A DNA stretch of 64,000 nt from Euglena gracilis (lineage: Eukaryota). The translations under genes and the position numbers were made by a program. The number at the start of each line of letters is the position of its first letter. Within the stretch, counting starts at the first letter, position 1. The stretch is taken from NCBI GenBank assembly GCA_039621445.1, contig CP154954.1:17762589-17826588 (forward strand), given 5' to 3'. Below the pieces are notes generated by a model. That model saw only the letters and a list, made by a program, of their open reading frames with translations. It made no database searches and was not told where the DNA came from. Positions 1,824 through 64,000 of the stretch are shown in pieces.

Positions 1824-1980
1824 TCGGACTCCCACGACAGAGGAAGGGGGAGGAAGGGACCAAGAGGGCGAAGCACAAGAAGATGGTGAGGTCCTGCTTT
1901 CCTTGCCGGCTGTTTTGTTCTGGTGTGTTTGTGCGTGCGCGGGGGGTGCTTCTTACTGCGCCTTTGTTGCCGGAGTTGGC
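1824..1980 (-). repeat. Right ITR plus unique right extension of DIRS family 1 element
   Basis: 1881-1980 is the near-perfect reverse complement of 6262-6360; 1824-1890 is the reverse complement of the ICR first half. Confidence 0.92.
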
Positions 1981-2199
1981 GATGATGAGGCCTCGTCCGA
2001 CACCTTGGCGAAGTGGAACCGCCGTGGCCCCGCCCCCCCCCTTACGCATGGTTGTTTGGTGGGGGGCCCCCCCCTCGATGGGGATGGTTTTCTCTGTCCG
2101 GTGTGTTTCTGGGTGGGTGGTTGGGGCTGCTTGGTTGGGGGCCCCCTTTCTGGTTGGGATGTTTTTCTTTTTGCTGATTTTTTGGGTGGGGGGGTTGGG

Positions 2200-2301
2200 C
2201 TCACCATCTTCTTGTGCTTCGCCCTCTTGGTCCCTTCCTCCCCCTTCCTCTGTCGTGGGAGTCCGAGACCATTCGGGCTCCGCACTGCGAGATGGTGAGG
2301 T
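2200..2301 (-). other. Internal complementary region (ICR) of DIRS element
   Basis: CTCACCATCTTCTTGTG...GGGAGTCCGA is complementary to the right end. It is joined to GACCATTCGGGCTCCGCACTGCGAGATGGTGAG, which is complementary to the left end. Confidence 0.92.
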
Positions 2302-3142
2302 ACTGTGCACCCCCCTTTGGGCCATAATTTTTTGAATTTTTGAAACGACACCAAGTCGCAAATAATGAGCTTGGAAGGCTCCAAAATTTTTCCACTGACC
2401 CAGCTGCTGGACTTCTTCCACTTGTAAACCCGCGTTTTTCCACCATAAAACCCCAGCCCCTCTGGTGCTGTGGGGTTTCCAGTGGGTGGTGTCCACCCGG
2501 TCAAGGAATTCACCCTTTCTGATGTCAAAGGTTTTTTACCATCCAAAGACCACAACAAATTATTCTTGTGCCCAACCATGTGGGCTGTCCTTTCCACATA
2601 CTCTTTCAATAAATGCCAGGGGCTGATGAGGGGGGTGTGTGGCAAAATCAAAACTTCCTCCCATCTTGGGAATTGCCACCCTTTCCTTTGCAACAAAATG
2701 AAAATTTTGTCTCCCACGAAACTGATTTTTCGCTGGGTTCTGGCTAGATCAACCCCCCTGTGGAGGGCCAAAAGCCTCCAACAGATGATGAGTCTGTTTC
2801 TGAGTTCTTTCACCGATAGGTCTGAGAGGGGTGTTGCATTGCCCATGATGTTTTCTAGGAATTCAGTGGGGTCCCAAAAGTGGGCATACTTGCAGACATT
2901 GGAATTCCATTTCCTTTTTAATGGAGACAAAAGAGGGGAAAACCTCAATGACCCAAACCCTGGGAGTAATAAAGCTGCTGCATATGCATTTCGTGCAGTG
3001 TTGAGGCTGTGAACAGCCAAATCAAGGATGGCCTCGGCCATCTTGTGGACTGTGCAGTCCTGCAGGGGCACCCCTTTGTGCAACAATTGGCCCACCAAGG
3101 CCCTGAAGGCTGAGTCATACCGTTTGACATTTCCCAGATTTT

Positions 3143-6106
3143 TTATGTAAGTGTCGATACTGGACATCGAAACTTCCTGGGATTGTAATATTTGCCTGAC
3201 ACAATCAAGCAGGCCAAATTCCACCTTGGGGGGGGCATGTCCTCCCCCCAGCAGTTGGTGAACAGACCCCCCTGGGGGGGTACCAGCAAAACTTTGCTGC
3301 CTGGCTGTCTGATTGCCATTAATTGGCGCCACCATGATGTCGAAGCCCAGTGGGGTACGATTAACAGACATGTCAGGTCTGGGTTTAACATTAATCTTTG
3401 AACCCACTGAGGAATGATGCTCCAGGGGGGGTTGGCATAAACTGGGGGGAGGCCCCTCAAATCTGCCTTCAAGGCATCCACCAGCAAAGCCCCTTGGTGG
3501 GGGTATCGACAAACGAATTTGGGGAATTTTTTGTTGCTGGGGGTACAAAACATGTCCACCTCTGGGGTGATGTCCTTTCTGAAAAAGTGCAGAATTTGGT
3601 GAAAAATGTTCAGGTTTAGGGTATAATCCCCTGGGTCCCTTTGCTCCCTGGTCAGGGAGTCTGCCAATTGCTCTTTTGTGGGAACCCAAACCACCTGCAA
3701 ATTGATTTGCTTTTCTTGGCAATGATACAGCAGGGGTTTTAAAATGGAATTTAGATAGGGCTTTCTGCCTCCCCATTTTGTTAAATAACTTACAGCCACT
3801 TGGCTGTCCACATGAAGCATTATTGTTTGTTTTGGCTTTGCCAGACTTTTTACTGTCTCCACTGCTGACATCAATTCTTTTTGGTTGATGTGAAGGATGT
3901 GCAGATCCCTCCAAAAATCCTGCACTTTTTGGCCTGAATTTTTGTCCAGCCCCCCCCACTGCCAGGTGCTGCTGTCTGAAAACAGTTCCTGAGAGGCCTG
4001 GGATTGAAATGCTCTGCCCACACCTGGCTGCAAAAACGCTTTTTTTAACTCCACAATTTGATCTTTGACCCCCTGGGGAATGGTTAGGGTGTGGTCCCAA
4101 CCCCACTTTGTGTGCAAATCCACCATTTTGCAAAGTTGATCTGTCAGAATTCTGAGAAATGGCATGGAGACTAAATAGCTTCTGACTTGCCCCACAATAG
4201 AACTGAGTTTTCTGCAGCTCATCTTTTGTGCTGTGAGCACCTTGCCTAGCTCCTTTCTTAAGGATTTTAGTTTTTCCTGTGGAATTTCCAGCTGGCCTTT
4301 TTTCAAATTGATCCACTGGCCCAAATGCTTTATTTCCTGTGTTGGTTCTAGACATGATTTGGGGAGGTTTATTCTGAAACCTGCCAGTAAAAGATCTTTT
4401 TTCATTTCTGCCAAATGCTGGGCTGTTGTCTTTTTGCTGGGGGCTAACAGCAAAATATCGTCCAGGTAGATGAAAACTACCTTTCCTTCCTTCCTCCATT
4501 TCCTTTCCCAGACTCTCATGAGAGTCATAAACTTTTGTGGCAGGCTGCTTATGCCAAAGCATGCAGCTTGAAACTGCCACGTTTCCCCCCCCACCTGCAT
4601 GCACACATGTTTCTCCAGACTGCTGTGCAGTTTTAAGTGGAAGTATGCATCTTTCAGGTCTATTTTTCCACAGAACCAACCTTTTCTTAGATATGGGAAA
4701 ATGTTTCCCATATGTTCCAATCTGAATTTCTGTGGGGTAAAATGGAGATTTAACTGTCGACAATCTGATATCAGTCTTTCTTTGGTCTTTTCCCCTTCCT
4801 TTTTGGAAATGATAAAATAAGGAACAAAATGTTTTGCCTCCTCTGGGGGGATTTGTCTGGTTGCCCCTGCACATTCGTATTCTCTCAGAATTTTTTGGGC
4901 AGTCATTATTTCTTGGGGGGTCTTGAATGGAACTTTTTTGGACATTTGAGGGGGGAGGGGAAGATCTGCCATAACACCTTCCCTTATCAGGTTTAATACC
5001 TCTCTGCTGGCTCCTGCCTTTTCCCAATGAGGGATACTGGCCTGCAGGGCTCTGAAAGGGGGTACCCCTGGGTGTAATGTATCTGGGGATTCCACAGGCC
5101 CCATCACTGGGGTCCTTCCCCCTGGCTGCCCCATCACTGGGGTCAGCTCTGGCTGCCCCATCACTGGGGTCCTCTCTGGCTGCCCCATCACTGGGGTCAC
5201 CTCTGGCCCTGCCATAGGGCTGTTCAAAGACAGGCTTTCCCCCTGTTTTTGAAAAATGGGGGAAGGTCTGTGTCTGCAGTGGGGAGGTACATATACAGCT
5301 GGGGGGTGTGGGCTGATTATCTTCTGGGGGGGCCCTGGTGTAGCCATTCTTGGGCCTCCCCCCCAAGGGCTGTGGTCTTGAATGCATGGGCCTCCAATGG
5401 CCATTTGATTTTTGTTGAAATGGCCTCCATTGGCCTTGATACTTTGGCCCTGGCCTCCATTGGCCTCTTGGATATAATGGCCTCCATTGGCCTTCCCCTG
5501 AAGGGGGTGGGGCTTGCTTGGATGGTTGAAATGGCCTCCACTGGCCTTGAGGTCTTGATGCCTCCACTGGCCACCATTGGCCCCTTGATTTTGAATATAA
5601 TGGCTTTTCAGCCTGAGCTTTTGGCTTCCATAGCCTTGCAGCTGGGCTCCATGCCCTTGATGATAAAGGCTGCCATAGCCTTGATGACAAGGGTCTCCAT
5701 GCCCTTGATTCCTCCTGGGTGGGGGGTGGTGATGAGAAAAAGGGGGGGTAATCTGCCAGACCTGTCTCCCCATTTCTTTTCCTCGATTTACTGGCCACCA
5801 CTGTCCAGGGTCCATGGCCGTCGTTGAACTGTTGGAATCGAAATTTCTCTGGGAGATTGGGAGGAGGGGGGGTTGCGACGGCCACGGACTGGTGTTCTGC
5901 TGCTGCCCCGTCATCGTCTCCAGCGCCTGCTGCTCCTCCACTCTTCTCCATTCCAGGTTTCTTCCTTGAAATTCCTGATGATGTCGCTGGACGGTCTGTG
6001 TTGGTTGCACCGGCTTCAGCTGGGACTCCGTCTCTTCCAGCTTCAGCTGCCTTCTCCTGGCTTCCTTTTTGCTCTGCTGGGCCGCTGGACACCAGGTATG
6101 TGGCAT
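3143..6106 (-). CDS. DIRS polyprotein: low-complexity N-terminus, reverse transcriptase, RNase H, N6-adenine DNA methyltransferase
   Basis: RT: RLISDCR, KIDLKDAYFH, CFG, YLDD. RNase H: FSDSS, HINQKEL, VDSQV, LADSLTR. MTase: VDMFC...VDAL...YANPPW...VPHWASTSWW. Confidence 0.93.
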   Translation of the reverse strand: MPHTWCPAAQQSKKEARRRQLKLEETESQLKPVQPTQTVQRHHQEFQGRNLEWRRVEEQQALETMTGQQQNTSPWPSQPPLLPISQRNFDSNSSTTAMDPGQWWPVNRGKEMGRQVWQITPPFSHHHPPPRRNQGHGDPCHQGYGSLYHQGHGAQLQGYGSQKLRLKSHYIQNQGANGGQWRHQDLKASGGHFNHPSKPHPLQGKANGGHYIQEANGGQGQSIKANGGHFNKNQMAIGGPCIQDHSPWGGGPRMATPGPPQKIISPHPPAVYVPPHCRHRPSPIFQKQGESLSLNSPMAGPEVTPVMGQPERTPVMGQPELTPVMGQPGGRTPVMGPVESPDTLHPGVPPFRALQASIPHWEKAGASREVLNLIREGVMADLPLPPQMSKKVPFKTPQEIMTAQKILREYECAGATRQIPPEEAKHFVPYFIISKKEGEKTKERLISDCRQLNLHFTPQKFRLEHMGNIFPYLRKGWFCGKIDLKDAYFHLKLHSSLEKHVCMQVGGETWQFQAACFGISSLPQKFMTLMRVWERKWRKEGKVVFIYLDDILLLAPSKKTTAQHLAEMKKDLLLAGFRINLPKSCLEPTQEIKHLGQWINLKKGQLEIPQEKLKSLRKELGKVLTAQKMSCRKLSSIVGQVRSYLVSMPFLRILTDQLCKMVDLHTKWGWDHTLTIPQGVKDQIVELKKAFLQPGVGRAFQSQASQELFSDSSTWQWGGLDKNSGQKVQDFWRDLHILHINQKELMSAVETVKSLAKPKQTIMLHVDSQVAVSYLTKWGGRKPYLNSILKPLLYHCQEKQINLQVVWVPTKEQLADSLTREQRDPGDYTLNLNIFHQILHFFRKDITPEVDMFCTPSNKKFPKFVCRYPHQGALLVDALKADLRGLPPVYANPPWSIIPQWVQRLMLNPDLTCLLIVPHWASTSWWRQLMAIRQPGSKVLLVPPQGGLFTNCWGEDMPPPRWNLACLIVSGKYYNPRKFRCPVSTLT
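5100..5213. repeat. 4 x ~27-30-bp tandem repeat in DIRS coding region
   Basis: CCATCACTGGGGTC...CTGGCTGCC units, encoding PVMGQPE in one frame and PSDGAAR in the other. Confidence 0.9.
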
Positions 6107-6261
6107 CTTTCATGGAAATCAAATTTTTCTTTCTCCGCTTTTCTATATCGTCCAGATTGCTCTTCCTCCTCTGTATTGACTGGTCGGTGTGGTTGAACGT
6201 TGTTGAACTCGTTGAGTTGAAATTCTTTCTCCTTGAGGTCGAAGGGCAGAATTAAGAATCA

Positions 6262-6383
6262 GCCAACTCCGGCAACAAAAAGCAGTAAGAAGCACCCCCC
6301 GCGCACGCACAAACACACCAGAACAAAACAGCCGGCAAGGAAAGCAGGACCTCACCATCTCGCAGTGCGGAGCCCGAATGGTC
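6262..6383 (-). repeat. Left ITR / left terminus of DIRS family 1 element
   Basis: Inverted copy of 1881-1980; 6351-6383 is complementary to the ICR second half. Confidence 0.92.
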
Positions 6384-6438: not shown

Positions 6439-7029
6439 TACTCCCTCGAGGAAGCCCGCAAGGGCATAAGGGACACCTAGGGCGAAGCGCAAAGACCTTG
6501 TGAGGCCACGCCTTGCCCTGTACTCCTACCCCGGGCTCCGCAATTTGCCCTTGTGAGGCCATACGGCCATACCTTGCTCGCCGGCGGTGCGGTGTGGATC
6601 TTTTTTTGGTTTGCTGGGTTAGGCGGTCCCGCGCAGTGCCTTTTTCGCCGGAGGTGGCCGATTCCCATTTTGCCCTTCGACTGCCAAGAAAAAAGGACCT
6701 GAAAACCTTATCCACTGGAAGAAGAAGAAGTCCACTCAACTAAGTTAAAATATCGGGGGAGGCACGCTCGTGAAGAACAAAAAAGAAGAAATTGTTGAGT
6801 TTTTTTGAAAGAAGTTCAAGGAAAGATGCCATTTCAAAGAAGCACAGCGCTGGAGAACTTCAAGAGGGAGAAGCCGAAGCAGCTGGACAACCTGACGACG
6901 TGAACCGACCGTTGCGAACCGTGGCTGCTCCTTACACATCAGAAAATTCAAAATCCAAAAAAACACCCGAAGTGACAACCACGGTCCATGGCAGACAGTG
7001 GTCAGAAGACCCCGGAGGGAGCAGAAGAA
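6439..7029 (+). mobile_element. Remnant termini and 5' ORF fragment of DIRS family 2
   Basis: 6439-6515 resembles the family-2 right extension (cf. 7030-7100). ~6530-6660 resembles the family-2 left terminus plus ITR, followed by CCCTTCGAC as in the other DIRS 5' regions. HGPWQTVV matches HGPWTVV of element 1. Confidence 0.6.
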
Positions 7030-7439
7030 TCGCACTCCCTCGAGGCAAGCGGGCCAGGGAGGAAGGGACACCGAGGGCGAGGCACAAAGACATTGTGAGG
7101 CCATGCCTCGCTCGCCGGCGGTGTGCTGTGATTGTTTTGTGCGCTGTGTTAGGAGGTCACGCTTAGTGCCGCCTCGCCGGAGTTGGCTGCTGATGCTTCT
7201 CAGACGTGGCGACGTGCCTTCTGTCCCTTGGGGGTCCCCCACCCACCACCCCCCCCCTGGCCCGCGTCTTCTGACCGAGGGTGTTTGAACACAAATTTCC
7301 GGACATTGGCGGGGGGGGGGGGGTCGGGCTCACAATGTCTTTGTGCTTCGCCCTCGGTGTCCCTTCCTCCCTGGTCGGCTTGCCGCGAGGGAGTACGAGA
7401 CACCTCGGGCTGCGCACTTTGCCATTGTGAGGCCAGATT

Positions 7440-8630
7440 GTGCACTGAAATTAGGGGGGCCAGGGCATTCTCTAAAGCACCTTGGGCACCAAGTCTTTGG
7501 TAATGGGCTGTAAAAGCCTCCACCCCGTTCCACTGACCAACTTCACAAACTTCTTGGGCAGAAAGGCCCAATTCTTTGAGCAAACCAACCCCTGCTCCTC
7601 TGGTGGAGTGGGATCCCCAAACTTGGGGGGTCCCCATGTTGGGATAAAAATGTTTTTGTAATGGAAGCAACTGTATCAGCACTTATGGCTTTATAGGAGG
7701 GTTTTAACGAATTAAATGGGACCCTCAGGTTTCACAAAGAAACGTGTTGCTGCCACATAGGACATCATCAAAGGAAAGGGACTGATTTAGGGACAGTGAG
7801 GAATTTCAACAACTCTCTCCCACTTGTGGAACTTCTGGCCTTTACGCTTAATTTTGATCTAGGCAGCCCCACCCAACACACTGGTGGTTCTTTGGACCTG
7901 TGCCAAATCTGAACTTCTGTATAAACAGAGAATTATGCAGCAAAAAATGAGTTGTGTACGTAATGTACAAATATCAGTGGGCAGGGGGGACTGTGCCAGC
8001 CCCAGGAGGATTGGGAGGGGATCCCCAAAAGCACCATACTTATATAGATTTTGGTTCCAAAGCCTTTTGTAAGGGGCTAACATGCCATGGAACTTCAGAC
8101 CACCAAGGCCGAAGTTCAAAGCCAGGGATTAAAAGCATAGCACAGTATGCATTACGGACCTGTGCCTTTGAAAAATGAAAAATTTGTATTAAAGCGTCAA
8201 CCACTTGGTCAGTGGTGGCTGTAGGGGGGGGTACCCCCCTTTTCCAGAATGACCCATAGAAGCGTAAAGGCGTTTTGGTAACGCCCTATACTGGGGATTC
8301 TTCCCAGGAAATTGTTAGTGGACTTATTTTGTATTTGTTTCTCTTCCAAAATTTGCCTGAGAAAAACATGCAAAGAAAGGGCCACCTGGGGGGTGGCATT
8401 TCTTCTCCCCTGCAATTGGTGAAAATACCCTTGTAGGGGGTGATTTTCACGGAGGGGGTCCCTGGCACTTTCATTTTTATTAACTGGGGCCACCAGGTGG
8501 CTGATTCCCAGTAGGGGGTTACCATCAAATCTTTTGTCTGCAGAGAATTTTTCAATCTGGGAGGAATTTTTGAATTACTGACCAGGGGGGGGGGTTGCAT
8601 AAAGGTGCCCCAGATTGTCCAGGGGACATT
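7440..8630 (-). pseudogene. DIRS family 2 tyrosine recombinase plus MTase C-terminal fragment, unit 1
   Basis: LYRSSDLA, HSTRGAG, GQW, AHY; LYA(NPP)W region and PYWESATWW; stops and frameshifts. Confidence 0.85.
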
Positions 8631-9251
8631 GCAGTGCAGATGCCATTTCAAAGAAGCACAGCGCTGGAGAACTTCAAGAGGGAGAAGCCGAAGCAGCTGG
8701 ACAACCTGACGACGTGAACCGACCGTTGCGAACCGTGGCTGCTCCTTACACATCAGAAAATTCAAATCCAAAAAAACACCCGAAGTGACAACCACGGTCC
8801 ATGGCAGACAGTGGTCAGAAGACCCCGGAGGGAGCAGAATAATCGCACTCCCTCGAGGCAAGCGGGCCAGGGAGGAAGGGACACCGAGGGCGAGGCACAA
8901 AGACATTGTGAGGCCATGCCTCGCTCGCCGGCGGTGTGCTGTGATTGTTTTGTGCGCTGTGTTAGGAGGTCACGCTTAGTGCCGCCTCGCCGGAGTTGGC
9001 TGCTGATGCTTCTCAGACGTGGCGACGTGCCTTCTGTCCCTTGGGGGTCCCCCACCCACCACCCCCCCCCCCTGGCCCGCGTCTTCTGACCGAGTGTGTT
9101 TGAACACAAATTTCCGGACATTGGCGGGGGGGGGGTCGGGCTCACAATGTCTTTGTGCTTCGCCCTCGGTGTCCCTTCCTCCCTGGTCGGCTTGCCGCGA
9201 GGGAGTACGAGACACCTCGGGCTGCGCACTTTGCCATTGTGAGGCCAGATT

Positions 9252-10447
9252 GTGCACTGAAATTAGGGGGGCCAGGGCATTCTCTAAAGCACCTTGGGCA
9301 CCAAGTCTTTGGTAATGGGCTGTAAAAGCCTCCACCCCGTTCCACTGACCAACTTCACAAACTTCTTGGGCAGAAAGGCCCAATTCTTTGAGCAAACCAA
9401 CCCCTGCTCCTCTGGTGGAGTGGGATCCCCAAACTTGGGGGGTCCCCATGTTGGGATAAAAATGTTTTTGTAATGGAAGCAACTGTATCAGCACTTATGG
9501 CTTTATAGGAGGGTTTTAACGAATTAAATGGGACCCTCAGGTTTCACAAAGAAACGTGTTGCTGCCACATAGGACATCATCAAATGAAAGGGACTGATTT
9601 AGGGACAGTGAGGAATTGCAACAACTCTCTCCCACTTGTGGAACTTCTGGCCTTTACGCTTAATTTTGATCTAGGCAGCCCCACCCAACACACTGGTTGT
9701 TCTTTGGACCTGTGCCAAATCTGAACTTCTGTATAAACAGAGAATTATGCAGCAAAAAAAGAGTTGTGTACGTAATGTACAAATATCAGTGGGCAGGGGG
9801 GACTGTGCCAGCCCCAGGAGGATTGGGAGGGGATCCCCAAAAGCACCAAACTTATATAGATTTTGGTTCCAAAGCCTTTTGTAAGGGGCTAACATGCCAT
9901 GGAACTTCAGACCACCAAGGCCGAAGTTCAAAGCCAGGGATTAAAAGCATAGCACAGTATGCATTACGGACCTGTGCCTTTGAAAAATGAAAAATTTGTA
10001 TAAAAGCGTCAACCACTTGGTCAGTGGTGGCTGTAGGGGGGGGGTACCCCCCTTTTCCAGAATGACCCATAGAAGCGTAAAGGCGTTTTGGTAACGCCCT
10101 ATACTGGGGTTTCTTCCCAGGAAATTGTTAGTGGACTTATTTTGTATTTGTTTCTCTTCCAAAATTTGCCTGAGAAAATCATGCAAAGAAAGGGCCACCT
10201 GGGGGGGTGGCATTTTCTCTCCCCTGCAATTGGTGAAAATACCCTTGTAGGGGGTGATTTTCAGGGAGGGGGTCCCTGGCACTTTCATTTTTATTAACTG
10301 GGGCCACCAGGTGGCTGATTCCCAGTAGGGGGTTACCATCAAATCTTTTGTCTGCAGAGAATTTTTCAATCTGGGAGGAATTTTTGAATTACTGACCAGG
10401 GGTGGGGGGGGTTGCATAAAGGTGCCCCAGATTGTCCAGGGGACGTT
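9252..10447 (-). pseudogene. DIRS family 2 tyrosine recombinase plus MTase fragment, unit 2
   Basis: Near-identical to unit 1, with the same inactivating lesions. Confidence 0.85.
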
Positions 10448-11069
10448 GCAGTGCAGATGCCATTTCAAAGAAGCACAGCGCTGGAGAACTTCAAGAGGGA
10501 GAAGCCGAAGCAGCTGGACAACCTGACGACGTGAACCGACCGTTGCGAACCGTGGCTGCTCCTTACACATCAGAAAATTCAAAATCCAAAAAAACACCCG
10601 AAGTGACAACCACGGTCCATGGCAGACAGTGGTCAGAAGACCCCGGAGGGAGCAGAAGAATTGCACTCCCTCGAGGCAAACGGGCCAGGGAGGAAGGGAC
10701 ACCGAGGGCGAGGCACAAATACATTGTGAGGCCATGCCTCGCTCGCCGGCGGTGTGCTGTGATTGTTTTGTGCGCTGTGTTAGGAGGTCACGCTTAGTGC
10801 CGCCTCGCCGGAGTTGGCTGCTGATGCTTCTCAGACGTGGCGACGTGCCTTCTGTCCCTTGGGGGTCCCCCACCCACCACCCCCCCCCTGGCCCGCGTCT
10901 TCTGACCGAGGGTGTTTGAACACAAATTTCCGGACATTGGCGGGGGGGGGGGGTCGGGCTCACAATGTCTTTGTGCTTCGCCCTCGGTGTCCCTTCCTCC
11001 CTGGTCGGCTTGCCGCGAGGGAGTACGAGACACCTCGGGCTGCGCACTTTGCCATTGTGAGGCCAGATT

Positions 11070-12265
11070 GTGCACTGAAATTAGGGGGGCCAGGGCATTC
11101 TCTAAAGCACCTTGGGCACCAAGTCTTTGGTAATGGGCTGTAAAAGCCTCCACCCCGTTCCACTGACCAACTTCACAAACTTCTTGGGCAGAAAGGCCCA
11201 ATTTTTTGAGCAAACCAACCCCTGCTCCTCTGGTGGAGTGGTATCCCCAAACTTGGGGGGTCCCCATGTTGGGATAAAAATGTTTTTGTAATGGAAGCAA
11301 CTATATCAGCACTTATGGCTCTATAGGAGGGTTTTAACGAATTAAATGGGACCCTCAGGTTTCACAAAGAAACGTGTTGCTGCCACATAGGACATCATCA
11401 AATGAAAGGGACTGATTTAGGGACAGTGAGGAATTGCAACAACTCTCTCCCACTTGTGGAACTTGTGGCCTTTACGCTTAATTTTGATCTAGGCAGCCCC
11501 ACCCAACACACTGGTTGTTCTTTGGACCTGTGCCAAATCTGAACTTCTGTATAAACAGAGAATTATGCAGCAAAAAATGAGTTGTGTACGTAATGTACAA
11601 ATATCAGTGGGCAGGGGGGACTGTGCCAGCCCCAGGAGGATTGAGAGGGGATCCCCAAAAGCACCATACTTATCTAGATTTTGGTTCCAAAGCCTTTTGT
11701 AAGGGGCTAACATGCCATGGAACTTCAGACCACCAAGGCCGAAGTTCAAAGCCAGGGATTAAAAGCATAGCACAGTATGCATTACGGACCTGTGCCTTTG
11801 AAAAATGAAAAATTTGTATTAAAGCGTCAACCACTTGGTCAGTGGTGGCTGTAGGGGGGGGGGGTACCCCCCTTTTCCAGAATGACCCATAGAAGCGTAA
11901 AGGCGTTTTGGTAACGCCCTATACTGGGGTTTCTTCCCAGGAAATTGTTAGTGGACTTATTTTGTATTTGTTTCTCTTCCAAAATTTGCCTGAGAAAATC
12001 ATGCAAAGAAAGGGCCACCTGGGGGGTGGCATTTTTTCTCCCCTGCAATTGGTGAAAATACCCTTGTAGGGGGTGATTTTCAGGGAGGGGGTCCCTGGCA
12101 CTTTCATTTTTATTAACTGGGGCCACCAGGTGGCTGATTCCCAGTAGGGGGTTACCATCAAATCTTTTGTCTGCAGAGAATTTTTCAATCTGGGAGGAAT
12201 TTTTGAATTACTGACCAGGGGGGGGGGGGTTGCATAAAGGTGCCCCAGATTGTCCAGGGGAAATT
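11070..12265 (-). pseudogene. DIRS family 2 tyrosine recombinase plus MTase fragment, unit 3
   Basis: Near-identical to unit 1, with the same inactivating lesions. Confidence 0.85.
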
Positions 12266-12271
12266 GCAGTG

Positions 12272-13506: not shown

Positions 13507-13946
13507 AGTGTACGTCCTACCTTATCGCTTTCGCCGTTTGGTGCGCACAAAAGGATATAAGTAGGCGTAACAAGAAAAAATATCAAATAAATATAAAAGT
13601 TGTTTTGCCCTTTTCCCCAATTAAGAGGCAGAGCACAAGACAGGGGAGAAGCCCTATGGGCTACGGAAATCGATGGCGGTTTTTGACTGTCCTTTCAGGA
13701 CTTCAAATCAGAAAAATCAAAGTTGAAAACTCAAGTCTTGAATCAAAGACCAGAATGGAATAAAATAGAAAATACCACCTGTGGAGAGGAGAACCAGAAT
13801 TATGCTTAGGTATTCCTAATTCAGGCCTTTGGCCATCTGTAGGAATAACACCTAGCATAGTACTGTGTATGGGCACAGAGGTATATCTGGCCGTAGGCTT
13901 ATACCTACATACACAGTACCATCGCCTTACGGCTGCCTGGTACACA
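13507..13946 (-). repeat. 3' LTR of element A
   Basis: Direct repeat of 44077-44518; preceded on the sense strand by PPT GGGAGGGGGA (13947-13956). Confidence 0.93.
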
Positions 13947-15611: not shown

Positions 15612-16251
15612 AGCTTCCCAGGGGGGGGTCCCGGTCTCGCTGGGGTTCCGGCAGGGTGGGTCCCGGGTCACGGATCCGGCGAGGGGGGGTGCGCGGGTGG
15701 CTCAGCCCCCACGGAGGCCCTGGGAAGCTCCGTGGGTGCTTGGAATGGGTTGGGATCCATTTTTTAGTATTCCCGGCGGCGGAGTGGAGGGGGGTGCCTC
15801 CTGCGATGCCTCTGGGGGTCTGCGGAGCCGCTTAGGTGGGCCCTCGCAGGGGGGTAAATTGAGGGGGGACAGAGGGGGGGCGGAAAAGCCTGGGTGCTAG
15901 GGGTTTTCAGGGGGTGCTTACCACCATTATAGCCACTTAGCCCATCCAAATCCAGAAAGTACCTTTGAAATTGCCTTGGGGCGCTCCTGGTAGGCCAATT
16001 CCTTGAGGTTTTCTTTGATCTCCTTGAAGGTATTTTCTCCTTTGGCAGTTTCCTTTGGTTTCTTTGAATTCTTTGAATTTGATTAAATTGAACAATTGAA
16101 CTTGAACAATTGAATTCCACTGCACAAATCAGATTGAATGCATGGAAACAAGGGAGCCTGCTGAAGGCAAATGCAGAAAGGGGGTGGTCAGGTAGTAGCG
16201 GAGGGTTCCGCTACTTTGTGTGCGCATGCGCTCAGGCCGCCGCCGCCCACA
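15612..16251 (-). repeat. 3' LTR of element B
   Basis: Direct repeat of 28575-29214 with scattered substitutions; PPT at 16252-16261. Confidence 0.93.
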
Positions 16252-52426: not shown

Positions 52427-52840
52427 TGTGTACCAGGCAGCATGAACACCATGACGCTGTGCATAGCAGCAATCTGCAGAATGTACAGTGGCATGCCGGA
52501 TAGCACCATTCCAGGTTCTGCAATACAAATTGCAGAATTAGGAATGGCCTATCCTATCTCGGATCTGCCTTTCCCTTCACAGGTGGTATTTTTTCTTTCA
52601 TGATTTCATTTGCCTGATCAAAGGCATTTTCGATTTCAACACTCCGATTGGAGAACAACTGTGGAACCGAAGTTCCGAAATCACACCTGGTTTGCCTTGT
52701 GCTCTGCATAAGCCCAAAGGCAAAAAAAACTAATAGTTAAGTGAAAGACTTTTCTTTTTTGTTACTCTCCTGGTTCTGTTCCCACGGGAGGGTGTAAGTA
52801 GGCCGACAGGCAGTGGGAATAGAGTCAGGGGACGTACACT
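52427..52840 (+). repeat. 5' LTR of element C
   Basis: Direct repeat of 60618-61031. Confidence 0.93.
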
Positions 52841-53088
52841 TGGTTGCAGATTAGGTTTCCTTCCTACGTCCCTTCTTCCCCCCCTATCTCAACAGGTGAC
52901 CTCAAACAGTGAGTGGTGCTGAGCCTATAGGCTACAAAGCAACCACGAGCTGTTTGGAGCCAACTCCTAAGCACAGGTACAAGCTTCAGGAGGCTCTGTG
53001 CGGTATACGCTGCCACAACCTTCTAAGTTTGTTCCTTTGCTTACCTTTTGGGGTTTTTCTTGTGTTTGTTTCTGCAAATAAATAAAAT

Positions 53089-56000
53089 ATGCAGAGCTCA
53101 AGCACCAAGACATCAAAAGCTTTGATTGGTTCTTTGAGAAACTTTGATGAAGATTTGTTGCAGGAGTATATGCTCCAACCCAGGTGTGTCGCCCTATATG
53201 GGGCAACTCTCAGCTCTATTGAGCATCCCCCCACCACAGTGGTTTCCAGCTCTATTGAGCACCCACCCACCCCAGCTTTCAGCTCTATTGAGCATCCCCT
53301 TACCGTAATTTTCAGCTCTACCGAGCACTCCCCCACCCCGTTTTCCGGCTCTATCGAGCATTCCCCCCACAGCTCTATCGAGCAACCCCCCACCCAATGG
53401 GTGCCACACCTAACGGTGTCCAGCTCTATCGAGCATCCCCCCACAGTGGCCAGCTCTACCGAGCAATTACCTCCAACCCCCAGCTCTATAGAGCATTCCC
53501 CCACCGTTCCCAGCTCTATCGAGCATTCCAACGCCCAAAAGGTGCAATACCTGACGGTATCAAGCTCCATCGAGCATCTCCCCACTCAGGAGTTTCCACA
53601 CCTAACAGTGTTTGACTTAGGCGATAACCCCGCTGCGCAATGGGTGCAACGCCTATCGTCGTGTGGCCCTATCGAGCAAACCAGCGCCCAGTGTGATTGT
53701 CAACCTTTGCTGCAAAGTCAGGCACCTTGTGGTAACTCTCTGCACCAGGATGTCGCAACGGTGCCTACAGGCACAATTGGCAAACAACCCACTGATGTGG
53801 TTTACCGCATGCTGCCAAAGGAGGTATTTTTGCACATGCAACATAGTTTGCAGGCTTTGTCTAATCATGTGGAGCCAATTATGGCAATTTTTCCGCAATT
53901 GCAGCAAAAGTTGCATGAACCTCCCACCAAATATCCCGATTTGGGAAAGTTTATTACACTGGAGCAGTTCGACACCCTAGCTGCTGCATTCCAGGAAGCG
54001 CAACAGCGCATTTTGCAACTGAGCCGTGAATCGGCAAATTTTCACCATATACACACCCAACCTGGTGAAGGTTTCGCTTCCAGCACTTATGTGCAGCAAT
54101 TGGAGGAAAGACTTTCCCAGTTGGAGCGAAAATCATGTTGGTGTGGTGAACATTCTGCTGAAATGACAAGTTTTTACGCCAATATCGCGAATATCGCAAG
54201 CAGGCAGGATGCTTATCGCCAACGGTGGCAGAATAATATTGCTGACATCCAAACCGCAATTGGTGAGTTGCAGAACCGCAATGCGGTACCATGTGCACAT
54301 AATTTCAAATTTCAGCGATTTTCTGCAGATATGCGTGATGAAAATCACCACCTCAAGAAACATTTTTGACGGTCCGATACGGACCGAGCAAACAGTGAAC
54401 CAGCAAGTCAAAAACTTGCAGAAAGAGTTCTCAGCGCTATCCGCGCAAGTTTCGGTGTTCTTGGAACAGCCAATGGCTAAAAACGTGTGGAATTCGCAAA
54501 GTACCCCTCCTTCAAAACCATCTCCACAACTGGAGTCTATTTCCGAAGCCGTGCACACTCTAGCTGTGCGACTACGGGAATTGGAAGGTGGTTTTGGAAA
54601 AATTTCGCAAGATTTTCGGTCTTTTTCTGACAAAATCCCTCTTCTGGACGATATGTCCAAACATCGCAGGCATATTAAGCGTTTGCAGGAAGATATTCGT
54701 GCAATCACCGATCATCTGAAAATTCTCGATGATTTGGAGAAAATTTTTGGTGACTTTACAGAAAATTTGGATCAAGTGCACGCACAATTACGTTTGTTAC
54801 AACAAAAACCGATACGGGTGTTGTAGGCACACTTGCGGCAGATTCCAGCTCCAAAAGTGCTAACATCGCAACTGTGGCAGAGCCTATTGGCACATTGCCA
54901 CAAAATTACGATTCTGCTCATGCAGTGGTCCCCCTCCCCCAGCGGTACCAGTCCCAATGGACCATTTTTTGGATGATGGGGTTGGTTTTCAAGAGAAAGC
55001 CAAGCGAAACCCTCAAAGAAATCGAAAAATTTGGGAATATGAACTTTGTTGCGGTATGAGCCGCACTCCCGCACATGGTATTGATCCTGAGATGCATCAT
55101 CATCACCATTCGTGCATTCGCGATTCACCAAGTTTGCAAGGTACCTATGGTACACCAAGTGGAATATTGAACGCGCATTCGCATAATACACCCAAAAGTA
55201 CACTTGGTTCAACCACCGAGGTACCCGCGCATGGTGCGGTTTTGCGCCCAGGCCAATCCTCCTTGAATACCACCGAAGGGCCATGGGAGTCTCAGAAAGA
55301 TATCAAAGGAATCATCGCTATCGCGAAAAAGGTGAAGCCCCAACGGGACGGTGACCCAACAACATGGAAACAGTTTTTCCGTGATTGCGAATATTATTGG
55401 GATCTGAAAGCATCAACCCGGGACGAAAATCCGGAGGTGACCAAAATGTAATTGATAGATTGTCTACCAAAAGACGAAAAGGAACGCGCCAGACAATTGG
55501 TCATTCGCGGGCGCATTTCTTTTCAGGATTTGGTTGAGCAATATGCTTCATCATGTTCCAGTTTGGTTTCCAGAATAACTCTAGAGAAAAAATGGCAGCA
55601 ATATTCCTCCCATGACCGAAAATGGAGGTCGATACACCTATGGTACTCAAAATGGCTTTCTTTGGCAGCCGAAGTAGACGAGTTAGGCGAAACCCAAATG
55701 AAAGAGCAATTTGACGCAGTATTACTGCACTTTATACCCAAACTCATCAAAGAAAATCACCGCGAGGAACTCGCAGGACATGTTTTGACGCTCGATGAGC
55801 GATGGAACTATGTTTCCAAACAGTTGAAGCTATCACAGCTTCTGGGACAAATCCAGTCGGCTTATACGAGCCACCCCACAGCAGGAATACCCGCTATACA
55901 AGTCAGTTCTGTGAAAAAAGTGTCACGCTTATCACATACCGCTATAGCGGAATCCAAATTGCGCAATTCGCGCTCTTCAGAAGGATTTTCAGACAAATTG

Positions 56001-56462
56001 TGCTTTTTGTGTAACAAAAAGGGTCATATATTTTGCCATTGTCCAAATCCCGCAGCGCGAAAGCGCAACACAAGCCCAAGAGGATCGGCATCATCATGCA
56101 GTTCTCGTTTTTCACATAATGCGCATTCGCAAAAATCAAAATATCGATCACAATCCACATGTTCACTGTGCGGAATCACCAACCCCCCCTCACCCAAATG
56201 TCGCTATGCGACTCCTCCCCACCCAAGCCATAGCCATCGCGATATGACTCGCAGTTCAAAAGATCATACTTCAGCCAAAAGGCATAAGGTAGGTCAACGA
56301 ACAACCTCTATTGAGGAGTATCACCCGGCTTCGGGCAGGGAGGGGGATGATACCCCACGTAACCAAAGGGATCATCCCTGCTTAAGCGCTCATAAATTCA
56401 GAGACGTATATGCGTCAAGAAAGTCAATGGCTGATACGGCCACCGGTTCGGATTTTGAGTAA
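53089..56462 (+). pseudogene. Gag of element C (frameshifts/stops)
   Basis: DGDPTTWKQFFRD, HLWYSKWL, CFLCNKKGHIFCHC; collinear with the A gag. Confidence 0.88.
53211..53585 (+). repeat. Tandem SSIEHPPT-encoding repeats at the Gag N-terminus
   Basis: About a dozen copies of AGCTCTAT(T/C)GAGCA.CC; only 2-3 similar words occur in the A gag. Confidence 0.85.
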
Positions 56463-59400
56463 AGACACGCGAAACCCAGGAATGCGGACTACAGAGGCTA
56501 CTAGAAAGGAGGTGACAGGAGTCATGACCCTAGTCATCCCCTGCCCAGTATCCTTTCTGGTCATCGTTCCAGGATTTTCTGGTGTCCCCGCTCAAAATTC
56601 TGCCACATTGTTGACATAGAGATAGTGTTTTTGTTACCGGTTGTTGATGCACTAGGGGATACCCCATTTGTGTAACTTGTGCTTGAATGGATTTACGCTC
56701 CAAGAATGCACACAGCTCCGCAAACTTCTTTCCCCCCCCCAAAAAAAACTTCCACTACTCATCACTTTTACATACCGTTTTCGATGACAGCAATACCGTT
56801 TTCTACAACACCAACACCGTTTTCAACCCAGGGGTAAAGAGAAAGTGCCCCCCCTACCCACCGCATATCCACAAAGGTTCCACATGCGGTAGGGGTAACA
56901 AGTAGCTTAACCCCCCCAACGTTTCACTGGGTTCCAAGACGAAAGCCCTAAGGCCTGAAATTGGAATGGTGTCGAGTAGTCGCCCAGCTGCTTTCATTTT
57001 CCGTTTTCCACCAGGTTTGTCGATTGCAGACAATCCTGTAAACCCCCCGCAGCTCAAATTCGCATACAATTTTTCTTACACACTCCACCCCCCCCCAGAC
57101 CAACATGCGCGACAAGGACAACTATTCAGCACCTCCACCCAAGGTGTGCACTCTAGGAGAAATTTCCACACAACCAACAACCAAACACAAAAGGAAATAA
57201 CTGAAACCAAACTAACCACCACCCCCGCGCCTATGGCGCCCCCCAAGCGCCTATGGAACCCACTTGGAACCCACTACCCCCCCCGCGCCTTTGGCGCCTC
57301 CCTGCGCATATTGCGCAAAGTGCGTACAGCACAGACGCTGCGCCTATGGCGCCACCCACCATCGCGCATAGCGCAAATCTTGCGCATAATGCCCCCCCCG
57401 CGCTATATGGCGCCCCCAACCACCGTGCCTATGTCGCTCACACCCCCGCGCATATTACGCTCCCCACGCGCATAGCGCTCATCGCGTGCCTATTGTTTTG
57501 CACACCGCGCATAGCGCGCACCTCCCCACCCGCGCATATTGTGCAACCCGCAAACAAGATGCGCCCCCCCGCCCCCCACCTGTGCATAGCGCAAATCTCG
57601 CACAATCGCGTATATATCTTCAAAATGGGTATCTGCCCAACCCAACCATATTATTTTGGGAATAAGTCCCAAAGATGTTTGTGTACATATTTCACAATGG
57701 CATTTTTGTTGCTGATTTGCAAACCACATGCTCAAAATGCAGATTTGGTTTACTTAAGCAACAAAAGTAGCCATCCCCCCCTCTTTGACCACGAACTTGT
57801 TGGTCAACTTGGCGAACACCAAAGGTGTTTTGATCATTCAAGCGCACAGTTGCGCTGACTTCAAAGTTATTTGCAAAAACACAAGATGTGTGATAAGTTT
57901 TTGGGATACATTGCTAATACTGTATTTTTCCCATGAACTTGCACAGCTTTGTGAAGAACAGCTATTTTGTGAACAAAATGGCCTTTTTCTTATTGCAGAA
58001 GTGAATCCCGATAGGGAAAAAGTTGAATTCCTCGAGAAAATATGCAACATAGTTGCCACCCCCCCCAAAAAAAATGAAGAAATTTCATTCAAACATGCAT
58101 TTTTGTGGACTTGACCACTTAGCCTTAGGTCTATGTGACCAATACACCCTATGATGTGCAAGGCCTATGGGCCATTACCATGGGTCCATAGGACCAATTT
58201 GCACAAATTGCAAGGACCCAAAGGACCAAAGGTCCACAAATCCATGTTATAAAGTGAAAAGTCCATAGGACGTTTCACCTCAAAAAAAAATGGTTCAAAA
58301 GCTTCAAAATTTCTGGCACCTCGTACCATGAGGTTTTGACTGTACGTAGTAGTGCGTATGAGATAGAAACCAAAAGTTGTCTTTGTAGAATAAATTATTG
58401 GAGCTTATAGCAAAAACTCACTCACACTGGCAAAAGATCAAAGACGTATCTCAGCGCCTGTAGCTGGCCGATAGGCCATGTTACCCCTCATTCGAAAGCT
58501 CGTTCGATGAGCCGTCCAGCGGTGCAAACAGATCGCTGTAACTCTGCACGGTACTCTTATTTGAGAAGATCGTGAAAAATTGAATTAAGCCCGGCCAATC
58601 CGGCCAAAAGCCAAATTTTGGGCCAGATCTTGTACGATCGTGTACCAGACTGGCAAATCAGCCTGAAAAGCTTCTATACTGTTCCCCACATCGTTTCTGA
58701 TGGCTAATTACCATTGGTTACCAGATGGGCTAATGGCATTTTTTTTAGTACCTTTGGCAGGAATCTGCCCATTACCCCCTCTTTATGGGCTATTAGGCCT
58801 CGTACAGTTCAGAGGGCTATAGCCCACCGTTTGGAGCCATTTCGACTCACTAGAATCATTTTTAGGAGCACTTATGTGCAAATTTTCATTTAAATCATTG
58901 ATTTTCTGCAATTTTTGGTGATTTTTCTTTATTCTGGCACTCATATCCCTAATGGGAGTGACCATGAGTCACTATGCCAGAGTGGAATGCAAAGGAATAT
59001 GCTGATATTGCAATTTCCTTTGCTCAAGATGTCATCGACATGTTTTACTTGCATCTTCAGGCGTATTTTTGCTTTTTTGCGATATTTCTACACAATTATA
59101 CAAATGTTTGGGTGATGTGGGATCCCAAAATCTGTAAAAACAACAAACATCCAGTGTTATTGGACACTCTCAACAAGCACTATGTGCACTTGGCGAATTT
59201 GCAGTCTTAATGACTCAAAATGCAACGAAGTTGCACTTTTCGTCACAAAAATGCAGCTCTCGACGCAGAATCTGCATTTCTGCCCTAAATCGTGACAGGG
59301 ATCGCCCTAAAAATCTGACAAAAGTCAGTATTTCTCAGTGGCATAGTCACTAATGATGAGATTTTGTCATATTTGCAGTATTTTATCTACCTACCACACT

Positions 59401-60617
59401 AACGGCATTCCTGCCCCCCCCACTTTATTCAGTGGGACCCCCTTACCGATATAATTCGGAGGACCTAATGGTCATCATGTGCAACACCAATGGTGTCATT
59501 CTGCAAGGTTATAAGAACCATAGCTCAAAAATGGTGAAATCCAGCTTTTTGTGATGAATTTCACCGCACTGGAACAATGTTCCACCATTTTATGTGCATT
59601 CACAGTTCATTTGCGGTTTTTCAAAGTGGTATAAGCCACACCAACCACAGTTGTTCTGTGAATTGGCAGCAGCCTGCCACAATTCCGCATTTTTTCTGTG
59701 GTTGTACACATCAGTATGATCTTTTTGGCAATCTGCCGATTTTTTTGATTCGGGTATACACCCATTAGTATTTTTGTGCCATGCACACTCCGCAAGACAA
59801 TGTTTCTGGGCGATAAAGCCTACCCCCCCATTATTTTTGGCTAAGGCCAACCCTTCAGCCTACAGGCTGCACACCCAAGGCACAAATGCTAAATCTACAG
59901 TTTTTAGGGCTACTGCCCGCTATTCTGAGGTATACGCCTCTGGGGTACCCCATCGGCAACATCGTGTCCGTGCCGCGCTGCGAAGTCTTCCCCAGCGGTA
60001 TAGGCCGCCATTAAGAAGACGCACAGCGCACAGCGCGCACACCGTAATAATAGTTCCCAACTTGTTACTTTTCGGCCTTAAGGCCCCCATAAGACTGCCA
60101 GACAGCAAAAATTCTTTGTAAGGTCTTTAGACCAGCCCCCCACTCCTCTCCCCTTCCCCCTCCCCGGGCAAAATCGCTGTCGCCGGCAGTTGGTTTTGTA
60201 AATAGGCTTTCTTCCCTGTCAGGTATGACTGGCCAGGAGCCCCCTCCTTCCACACCCACCCGAGAATACGTTTTCCGATCATGGAATACACCACCCCAAG
60301 TGCCATAGGCACACCCAATCCTGGGAGGATGGGATTCTGGAAAGAAAACCTTCCAGCCCCACTTTCCAAGCGGGCTCTTCCACTTCCACCCGTTTACCGC
60401 AGTAAGTAGTTAGCCGCAGAAGCGGGTGAACTCTTTTGCGCGTTTTGGGTTTTTGGGTTCCCCTCTCTACCTAGCCGTTTCTGGTTTTAGACTTTGTGAT
60501 GGAGAAGCAGACACAAGACTTGCGGTTCCTGGTGTACATTCCTCAATCTCAGAGCTCTGCTTGAATCCTTGCTGGCCTGGTCCAGTAAGGAAATCGGGCA
60601 AAGCCCTGGGAGGGGGA

Positions 60618-61031
60618 TGTGTCCCAGGCAGCATGAACACCATGACGCTGTGCATAGCAGCAATCTGCAGAATGTACAGTGGCATGCCGGATAGCACCAT
60701 TCCAGGTTCTGCAATACAAATTGCAGAATTAGGAATGGCCTATCCTATATCTCTTCACCCTTTCCCTTCACAGGTGGTATTTTTTCTTTCATGATTTCAT
60801 TTGCCTGATCAAAGGCATTTTCGATTTCAACACTCCGATTGGAGAAGAATTGTGGAACCGAAGGTCCGAAATCACACCTGGTTTGCCTTGTGCTCTGCAT
60901 AAGCCCAAAGGCAATAAAAACTAATAGTTAAGTGAAAGACTTTTCTTTTTTGTTACTGTCCTGGTTCTGTTCCCACGGGAGGGTGTAATTAGGCCGACAG
61001 GCAGTGGGAATAGAGTCAGGGGACGTACACT
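60618..61031 (+). repeat. 3' LTR of element C
   Basis: Direct repeat of 52427-52840. Confidence 0.93.
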
Positions 61032-61702
61032 CATACCAACCCCCACCTCCCAATACCGCCCACTGCCCTTTGCATGTGCTGGCTGGGTTATTGGAAGGTT
61101 ACTGATTAGGCATGGCCACAGATTAGGATAGGAACCTATGAAGGCACTCCCTACCTTTGGCGTCATTCCCTCCTCTCTTCCTGCGCCCTGCCCCCCAGGT
61201 CCCACACTCTGGAAAATGACTCTGGCCATTTATCGGTATGTGGGAACTCAACTTTCATCCTGGAAGAAAAATTCAAAGTGCAAAGATATTTCTCCCCTAT
61301 CATTCCAGGTCACACTCCAGTTTAACCAACCACAGGACCACACACTGGCTCGCACAAGCTTGCAAACAAACGGTCATTCACCTTTCTGGATGCGCAGGGG
61401 CTATGTGCGGTCATAGCGACTCCTCGCACACACTCCCCCCCCTTTAGCGCTCAGAAAGACCTTGAATCCCCCCCCCCGTGGGGATGACAAGAGGCACATT
61501 TCTCCCGCCTCGGCAGGAGGTACCCAAGGACCTGCCCTCCCCCCAAACCTCAGGTGGGGCGGGACTACTTCTCCTCACTCTACACATTGTTTGCGTGATG
61601 AGCGGACTTACCACAGGAAGCCTCACCCCTCTTCAGCGGAGTGGGTGTTCTTCCCGCAGGTTTCCCGGACCCCCCCACAGGAGAAGGTGGCTAATCTCCC
61701 AC

Positions 61703-64000
61703 GACCATTCGGGCTTCGCACACTCTGGGGGTGAGATCCTGCTTTGTGTGCCGGCTGTTTTGTTGTTTGCGTTCTTTTGGCGGGGTGCTTCTTACTGCTT
61801 TTTGGTGCCCGAGTTGGCGTATATTAACGTCCTTCGACAATCAGAATGGCAACGTACGAAAAATTAACATCAGAAGACGAGAACGTGTTCAACAACGCGT
61901 GGACAGAACTGTTCTTCAACGAGGGCAACATGGCGAAACTACTGGCGTAATCGTCCCCGGAATCCCTCGTGAGCGTCATCGCGGCCGGCCAAAACTGGCT
62001 GGGAGGCGGATGGCACACTACGAAGTGCGCAACGAAGGTCCACGAGTTGACCCAGGTGGCGATGGTCTCCAGCCAAATCGGAGACTACAGGAATTCTTTC
62101 TTGTACTCGGTGGCGTTAGCAGGAAGCGTGGAGGTACCCCTAATAGACTTGGGGCAGACAGCGGCGGACGTGGCGTTCAAGCTGGCTGATCGTTGGCTGA
62201 ACAAGAGTTCGAAGAAAGACAAGGGGATGACGCAGAAAGCGGAGCGGTCCGCGATGGAGGAGGACGGAGAAGACGAGGAGGACAACGACAACGACGACGC
62301 GGAAGAACGGCTCCCCTGGCAGGAGGAACTGGCGCCACTGGCGCCAGAGCTGGCAGCGTGCCTTCGGCACGTCGAAAAGGGAGTGAGAATCCCCTGGAAG
62401 ATGGTCCTGGGAGAGCTGCCCAGGTACCAGGGGTTAAAAATGCGAGCAGAGGATAATAACCACAACCAGGACGGCAAAGGGGCCTGGGACAAGCAATTGA
62501 AGGCATGGCAACAAAAGATGTTACACCTGGAAAGAATGGTGGCCTGCCTGTATGGCAGTGTGGAGACAGACTATCAAATATTGGCTCAACAATTGTTTTT
62601 TGCTGTGGCAGAGCTGGAGCAGACGCTGCTGAGGGAGAGGAAGAAGTGCAGCATTCCAGGGGCCATCCCAAGTACAAACAACGGGCTGTTCTCCAAAGAA
62701 GATTTGGCTGTTGACAAAGCCCAATGGGCTCTGAATCAAGCAGGCTTGGCAACAGCTTTCTCCAGACATTCTATGTCTCATTTTCCCATTCCCACAGGAA
62801 ACAAAGGATTTAAATTCAAGTTTGGCAAAGGCAAAGGCTATGGCAGCCAATTCAAGTCTGGGAGAGGAAGAGGCTATGGCAGCCTGTGGAAGAGCCCAGG
62901 AGGGCAGAAGGGGTATGGATCCCCTACTGAATCTTCCACCTCCCCAATCATGTCCCCAGGAAAGGCAAGGGCAAAGCATGAAGCATCAAAGACCCCAAGA
63001 AGGGGTGAAGCCATCAAGGCCAGACCATCCAGGGAGTGGGGGAGAGACCCCCCAGCTGAACTCCATGGAGGAGATAATCCCCCTGCTAACCCCTGCTCTG
63101 AGGCCATCCCCAGTCTGGCAAGAGATCCGGGAGACAGTGACCTGGCCCACAACAAACTCCCTACCAGAGAATGGGAGAAAGGAATCATCCAGGGCCTGGA
63201 TTTCAAAGAAAGGGCATGGCTGGGGGTGCCCTTGTTTCAGAGACTAAGGAAATGTCTGCCATGGTGGCAGGAGAATGCAAATCAGTGGGTAGTAGCACTA
63301 ATTCAAACAGGTGTGCAGCCAGACCAACCCCTACCCAGGTGTCTGTCAACAAGACAGCAGCAAAAGTCAGAACAAGAAGTCAGCGTGGCCTCAAAAATCC
63401 TAAGGGAGTACCAAGAAAGTGGGGCAACCAAAAAGTTGCAAAATGCCCAAGACACTGTCCACCTAGTGCCATGGTTTGTGTTGTCCAAACCAGAAGGGGA
63501 GGGGGTCAAGCATCGACTTATCACAGATTGTCGAGACCTAAATCAATTCTGCTGTCCAGAAAAGTTCACTTTGGAAAATATGTCCACAATTTTCCCTACT
63601 CTGAAAAAAGGGGATTGGGCAGTCAAACTAGACTTGAAAGATGCATACTTTCATCTGGGACTGGAAAAATATTTCAAAAGGTTTGTCAGAATTCAAGTGG
63701 GACCAGACCTGTGGGAGTTTCAGGGAGCCTGTTTTGGCCTAGGCACCCTCCCAAAATTGTTCATGTCACTGATGAAAGTTCTGCTAAAACTGTGGAGGTC
63801 AAAGGGAATGCAGGTGTTCGTCTATTTGGACGACATCATTCTGTTTTGTTCAACAGAAAATTTGGTGAAAAAACATTTGCTGCAGATGCTGGACACATTA
63901 GGGGAGGATGGGTTCCAGGTCAGCCAGAAAAAGTCTGTGTTTACTCCCACACAAAGGATACAACATTTGGGATTCATCACAGACTTGCAAAAAGGTCAGC
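61703..64000 (+). mobile_element. 5' part of a third DIRS1-like element (runs off window)
   Basis: Left terminus GACCATTCGGGCT.CGCAC...GTGAG..CTGCTTT...GAGTTGGC, homologous to the element-1 left ITR, followed by gag-RT. Confidence 0.9.
61846..64000 (+). CDS. DIRS Gag-like/RT ORF (partial; premature TAA at 61948-61950; missed by the ORF track because it lacks a stop in the window)
   Basis: One frame from ATG 61846 through a helical gag-like region to RLITDCR, KLDLKDAYFH, CFGL, VYLDD. Confidence 0.88.

Follow-up and report, generated by a model that had tools for sequence, protein, structure and literature searches.

The window analyzed here is a stretch of 64,000 nucleotides of Euglena gracilis contig CP154954.1 (assembly GCA_039621445.1, positions 17,762,589 to 17,826,588 of the forward strand), and all coordinates below refer to positions within it. 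Retroelements arranged in six blocks account for approximately 57 kb of the window (57,327 bases, block edges being approximate). No host gene was recognized among the 48 window open reading frames (ORFs) scanned, and ARAGORN predicted no tRNA gene in the window. Two methyltransferase (MTase) modules were encountered in these elements, namely a DNA adenine methyltransferase-like domain (DAM) resembling PCIF1 and a compact C5-cytosine MTase (C5). The DAM/PCIF1-like domain, which is standard in DIRS1-like elements, is also located between protease (PR) and reverse transcriptase (RT) in a large clade of chromodomain-bearing Ty3/Gypsy elements; the compact C5-MTase is carried by a sub-branch of the same clade, and the two cassettes are arranged around PR in seven or more different orders. 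In a six-frame scan of the window with profiles built from relatives, DAM was detected only in DIRS family 1 (DIRS1), in the three units of DIRS family 2 (DIRS2) and in the element Gypsy A, C5 only in Gypsy B and Gypsy D, and chromodomains only in Gypsy A and Gypsy B.

DIRS1 (1824–6383, minus strand) is a DIRS1-like retrotransposon with an open frame at 3146–6109 (minus strand) encoding gag, RT, RNase H (RH) and DAM. Its RH was recognized by an SDSS motif and by position, and Pfam gave no match for it. The DAM/PCIF1-like domain at the C-terminus of Pol (3203–3631, minus strand; VDMF...VYANPPW) lies in an intact frame, matched Pfam Dam below the cut-off (E 2.9e-4) and phrog_111 (E 1.7e-5), and showed a weak match to PCIF1_WW. 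The element is delimited by inverted terminal repeats (ITRs; 1881–1980/6262–6360, 97% identity) and possesses an internal complementary region (ICR; 1824–1890/2200–2266, 100% identity). An ORF resembling a tyrosine recombinase (YR), split by a frameshift near 2535, matched integrase/XerD clusters of the Atlas (0.95–0.97) and had no match in Pfam, NCBIfam or PHROG. Gag, a Pol of the order RT-RH-MTase, an overlapping YR frame, ITRs and ICR are shared with the DIRS1-like elements described by Piednoel et al. 2011 (PMC3266345), from which the window element differs in nothing essential, apart from its split YR frame. The 2026 manuscript bioRxiv 10.64898/2026.05.21.726589 is cited below as the preprint. 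The MTase is a standard domain of DIRS elements (PMC3266345), and the DIRS element with DAM is a classical one. A preliminary description of the window had assigned an NPPW-type MTase following RH to both DIRS families. This applies to DIRS1; DIRS2 (6824–12271, minus strand) consists of three tandem 5'-truncated units of about 1.8 kb each (approximately 99% alike), in which only the C-terminal half of DAM is left (profile positions 80–138 of 140), a poly-C frameshift disrupts its motif, YR is broken, and RT and RH are absent. The DIRS2 units form a head-to-tail triple with ICR-like inverted repeats, which is possibly a trace of the integration of a circular intermediate or of local duplication.

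Gypsy A (13507–44518, minus strand; approximately 17 kb of its own sequence, frames broken) is a Ty3/Gypsy element, as deduced from its long terminal repeats (LTRs; 44077–44518 and 13507–13946), the target-site duplication (TSD) CTGAG and the order PR, RT, RH, integrase. As had been proposed, a Dam-like domain (37652–38071, minus strand; MDAF...WMHLPL, one in-frame stop) lies between PR (39233–39475, minus strand) and RT (36670–37348, minus strand), and a chromodomain follows the integrase (34426–34614, minus strand; Chromo E 4.8e-8). The Pfam Dam match (E 0.0045) is weaker than the threshold of 1e-5 applied in the preprint; the family profile matched with E 2.7e-43. Among the 25 top-ranking RT-RH relatives of Gypsy A, 14 had precomputed PF05869 annotations, and an HMMER-wide search with its DAM domain yielded 157 relatives, a word-based search one. 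The canonical motif is [DNSH]PP[YFW] (PMC4738411). Gypsy A did not retain the catalytic NPP triplet, featuring HLP within WMHLPL and a stop downstream; HPP occurs in five of the six DAMs nearest to it. Within its DAM clade of seven rows, six have His in place of Asn, and none has the final aromatic residue; among all DAM matches, 124 of 209 kept NPP. In all six pairs compared, Gypsy A-type DAM domains were 45–51% identical, as opposed to 20–30% for the linker. The structural model of the domain (pLDDT 91.1) had its best fold matches in PCIF1/CAPAM (E 1.8e-3), followed by KsgA/DIMT1. Past the chromodomain, Gypsy A continues for about 7 kb in a 3' extension (29530–34360 and 13947–15611, minus strand) with several ORFs of 280–550 codons, for which no Pfam or PHROG family was found at E<=0.05, PHROGs having been run on part of these ORFs.

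Gypsy B (15612–29215, minus strand) lies within Gypsy A, in the 3' region of the latter, has LTRs that are 97% alike and is flanked by the 4-bp TSD CATG. It encodes gag followed by a Pol with several frameshifts in the order C5, PR (22264–22503, minus strand), RT, and a chromodomain (18194–18388, minus strand) whose Chromo match is below the cut-off (E 6.4e-5) and with which the family profile agrees. The C5 domain at 22636–23241 (minus strand; catalytic SPPC intact) matched Pfam weakly (E 0.0015) and PHROGs strongly (E 2e-14). A sequence search against PDB returned no match; all structural matches listed for its model (pLDDT 90.5) were C5-MTases, the best with E 1.2e-6. Two motifs deviate from the family, namely motif I (FSETGS, with E for G of the family's FSGxG) and motif VI (EIP, with I for N of ENP). 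Every covering contig of two DNA runs carries the base giving Gly at position 23216, and the motif I change is therefore private to the window copy or an assembly error. Across 24 aligned C5 domains, the catalytic PC and the motif VI Glu are nearly invariant. Moreover, the ratio of non-synonymous to synonymous substitutions (dN/dS) between Gypsy B and Gypsy D is 0.29 for C5 and 0.30 for PR. In Gypsy D (approximately 44.6–50 kb), a truncated relative of Gypsy B, the C5 domain (45420–46001, minus strand) is dead due to replacement of PC by PS, which removes the catalytic Cys, and a stop; PR follows (44830–45069, minus strand), and neither RT nor a chromodomain is present. The C5-MTase preceding PR in Gypsy B and D was thus correctly predicted, and the chromodomain ending postulated for both Gypsy types was found in Gypsy A and B, but not in the truncated Gypsy D. 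At the head of the Gypsy B Pol, before C5, 99-bp tandem repeats (23230–24900, minus strand) encode a long linker rich in Pro, Gln and His.

In order to place the MTase-bearing Gypsy elements, the best 120 of 240 RT-RH relatives of Gypsy A, 34 relatives of the Gypsy B C5 domain and the protein P0039 were combined into a set of 151 proteins. A quick tree of 122 rows (118 proteins with an RT of at least 190 amino acids and four window rows, 33 proteins being dropped) placed Gypsy A and Gypsy B inside one clade of 100 rows (SH-aLRT 96). In a careful RT-RH tree of 45 rows (43 hand-picked ones plus Gypsy A and B), the clade holding both elements received support of 100/100. Furthermore, every C5-bearing row fell into a branch of 22 rows (99/97), which joins four rows of the order PR-DAM-RT (95/94), and the other PR-DAM-RT rows lie outside this group. 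Monophyly of the 17 DAM-only rows was rejected (approximately unbiased test, p-AU 0.009, LG+G4), the test having been chosen after the tree was seen. At least seven domain orders precede RT, namely PR-DAM, C5-PR, PR-C5, DAM-PR-C5, C5-DAM-PR, PR-DAM-C5 and PR-C5-DAM. DAM and/or C5 were detected in 47 of 57 clade proteins (RT query, PR in view) and in none of 20 outside the clade. In the ten MTase-free clade proteins, the first PR match is preceded by 9–117 residues, so that a C5 domain in front could be missed. The MTase-free proteins P0087, P0095, P0098 and P0100, which lie inside the C5 branch, show two tandem protease-like matches before RT. In a DAM tree based on 139 columns, all ten DAMs of dual elements sided with the four PR-DAM rows, at a support that is not firm (80/94).

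According to the preliminary description, three independent MTase-bearing lineages are co-located in the window. This argument fails because Gypsy A and B belong to one clade, in which the C5-bearing rows nest among PR-DAM-RT elements, and because the DAM of the Gypsy elements and the DIRS MTase domain are homologous. The window thus contains two modules rather than three inventions, with Gypsy A and B as cousins within one Ty3/Gypsy clade. In the simplest history, the Gypsy clade would have captured DAM once, at its base, and gained C5 once later on, with shuffling and loss thereafter. Likewise, co-location needs no special cause, since Gypsy B is physically nested in Gypsy A, with TSDs, and both are multi-copy: in one DNA run, 50,442 contigs were located on 19.9 kb of Gypsy A and B, the depth on the Gypsy A pol being approximately fivefold that on Gypsy B, a ratio that does not represent a copy number. 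Abundance and nested insertion are enough to account for the co-location.

The remaining elements show neither module within the window. Gypsy C (52427–61031, plus strand), a relative of Gypsy A with LTRs and the TSD CATAC, has a pol deleted past the linker that follows PR, which leaves neither DAM nor RT. A third DIRS element (gag-RT; 61700–64000, plus strand) is truncated by the end of the window ahead of RH and DAM. Gypsy A (44040–44076) and Gypsy B (28540–28575) have in common a primer-binding site starting (T)GGTAGCAG, from which that of Gypsy C (52841–52880) differs by one change; this site presumably resembles the 3' end of the initiator-Met tRNA.

The preliminary description had named a host devoid of 5-methylcytosine (5mC) and N6-methyladenine (6mA) as part of what would contradict its proposal. 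According to the preprint, E. gracilis features near-default 5mC at CG sites (5mCG) as well as promoter 6mA, so that with this species as the host the contradiction does not arise. The preprint also describes more 6mA on insertions of LTR elements with DAM (DAM-LTRs). Other DNA methyltransferases (DNMTs) of transposable elements (TEs) have CG activity (PMC5890265). In the window, CpG was below the codon-shuffled expectation in all five valid in-frame ORF sets, with z between −2.6 and −8.7 and the strongest deficit in DIRS1. No palindrome of four bases reached z < −2 in more than two of these five sets; an element that methylates a site has no need to avoid it. An apparent depletion of GATC and CATG in Gypsy B, derived from raw 4-mer counts, was spurious and arose because both strands were counted and the proteins contain repeats. 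When compared with shuffled synonymous codons, the Gypsy B gag contained 22 GATC sites, 20.8 being expected, and CATG was low (z −2.7) in this set only. The observed/expected CpG ratio of DIRS1 (0.27) is far below those of the C5-bearing Gypsy B (0.69) and of Gypsy A (0.89). Among 61 differences between the LTR pairs of Gypsy A, B and C and between DIRS2 units 1 and 2, 46 are transversions, of which C/A or G/T changes make up half; such an excess is unusual for a CpG-methylated genome, the sample being small and assembly errors possibly contributing.

Based on these results, the block is most readily interpreted, with somewhat better than even probability, as a pile of multi-copy retrotransposons, decayed and nested, in a genome rich in such families. 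The two MTase modules would serve to mark the elements' own new copies. According to the best reading, the elements mark these copies in advance or imitate host methylation there. In intact family members, PR would free the modules from Pol, after which their target, in cis, may be the cDNA of the element itself or its new insertion. CpG methylation laid by C5 would match a genome methylated by default, DAM could seed permissive chromatin of the 6mA type, and a DAM with decayed motif, as in the Gypsy A lineage, may bind nucleic acid without catalysis. Guidance of insertion into TE-rich chromatin by the chromodomain, which work cited in the preprint has established in other chromoviruses, is assumed by analogy for the window elements and would therefore lead to clustering.

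Several observations weigh against this interpretation. Only three of the 61 differences mentioned above are CpG transitions, and heavy methylation-driven decay is thus not supported. Two RNA runs, which represent one study, are linked by species label only and were read to about 5%, provided 52 and 37 reads on 19.9 kb, with none on C5 bins and almost none on DAM; such sparse reads agree with the low expression that has been reported for Euglena LTR elements. Eukaryotic DAMs were negative in an E. coli assay (preprint), and Iyer et al. (PMC4738411) called DIRS MTases likely inactive. The Gypsy A DAM model had no structural match at E<=0.001, RNA adenine MTases fitting best. Regarding the proposed history, the DAM tree left the DIRS1 DAM unplaced and so points to no donor of the domain; the tree sample is centered on Gypsy A and B with hand-picked rows, and the preprint favors several independent captures, with Euglena as a complex case of multiple exchanges.

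Among the alternatives, the one that survives best assumes DAM to be a PCIF1-like RNA-binding or RNA-methylating domain, or a dead accessory domain, acting on the transcript or on an RNA/DNA hybrid, so that only C5 would touch DNA methylation. The fold matches to PCIF1/CAPAM and DIMT1/KsgA, the PCIF1_WW match of DIRS1 and the grouping of DIRS MTases with PCIF1 by Iyer et al. (PMC4738411) are in line with this assumption, as is the loss of the canonical motif in a Gypsy A DAM clade whose domain is nevertheless far better conserved than its linker. However, well over half of the DAM matches retain NPP, PHROG and Pfam tie the domain to DNA adenine MTases of phages, and 6mA is increased on DAM-LTR insertions according to the preprint; overall, this alternative is considered rather unlikely.

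Less credit is given to the proposal of the preliminary description that the host applies a modification-dependent self/non-self test which destroys or silences unmodified cDNA, and that unrelated retroelements were repeatedly selected to methylate DNA. The frequency of MTases in the Gypsy clade, purifying selection on the modules, the CpG deficit in all valid ORF sets and near-default host 5mCG, due to which unmethylated DNA would stand out, are compatible with such a filter. However, Gypsy A and B are not independent, the DIRS MTase is ancestral to its superfamily and also frequent where the host has no 6mA (preprint), and ten clade proteins, some perhaps cut short, show no MTase. Moreover, adenine- and cytosine-modifying modules swap, which a single filter would not allow, palindrome avoidance is not consistent, the E. 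coli assay was negative, and the Gypsy A lineage lacks the canonical motif. Among the 48 window ORFs scanned, no modification-sensitive nuclease or reader was found. As a whole, the proposal appears improbable: its restriction-like branch is unsupported, given the inconsistent palindrome avoidance, the MTase-free relatives and the motif loss, and its softer silencing or mimicry branch is more tenable and close to the published view. A variant of equally low probability regards C5 and DAM as a swappable cassette beside the PR of the clade, a sub-branch having exchanged the adenine for the cytosine module because, where CpG is methylated by default, unmethylated new cDNA would be recognized and removed or blocked; methylation would then be a licence to integrate and more than a modulation of chromatin. 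If true, such a filter would represent a restriction-like defence in a eukaryote and would bear on the ease of maintaining foreign DNA in this host. Neutral hitch-hiking, by which the modules would be passengers of a successful Gypsy clade that no longer matter, might explain free shuffling, apparent losses and damaged domains in three of four window families carrying one, along with the two substituted motifs of the fourth Gypsy copy, but is very improbable in view of C5 dN/dS, the nearly invariant C5 residues and the conservation of DAM far above its linker, and for C5 it is already largely refuted.

DIRS elements with DAM, DAM-LTRs and Euglena elements combining DAM, DNMT and chromodomain (EpiLTRs, also described for Cymbomonas) are already published in the preprint. 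Gypsy A shares with DAM-LTRs the Ty3/Gypsy RT, RH, integrase, chromodomain and a DIRS-type DAM. It differs in being a broken copy of a lineage in which HPP or HLP followed by a non-aromatic residue replaces NPP(F/W/Y), and the available preprint text does not state its order PR-DAM-RT explicitly for Euglena. Gypsy B shares chromodomain and C5 with EpiLTRs; its C5 is 39–51% identical to that of dual-MTase relatives, and it belongs to the same RT clade. No DAM was found in Gypsy B or D by the six-frame profile scan, and Gypsy B is therefore a C5-only relative and not an EpiLTR; no window element joins both modules, the chromodomain being present in Gypsy B and Gypsy D being truncated. In Symbiodinium and charophytes, DNMT retrotransposons (de Mendoza et al. 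2018, PMC5890265) likewise carry a C5-DNMT in a host with widespread CG methylation, and are under purifying selection with mostly silent copies, as here. Those elements represent LINE-Dnmt as well as DIRS- and Gypsy-Dnmt3, whereas the compact C5 (approximately 200 amino acids) found here is nearest to phage and prokaryote C5-MTases in the libraries. A literature search covering few subscription papers retrieved no report on a C5-only Euglena Gypsy element or on a cDNA restriction filter, and PMC12695648 does not mention Euglena.

The epigenome of the host very likely matters for these elements. The window represents a worked example of a recently published phenomenon, to which it makes small additions, namely a C5-only chromodomain Gypsy element and trees indicating that elements with DAM only, with C5 only and with both are not separate inventions but one clade with a shuffled cassette.

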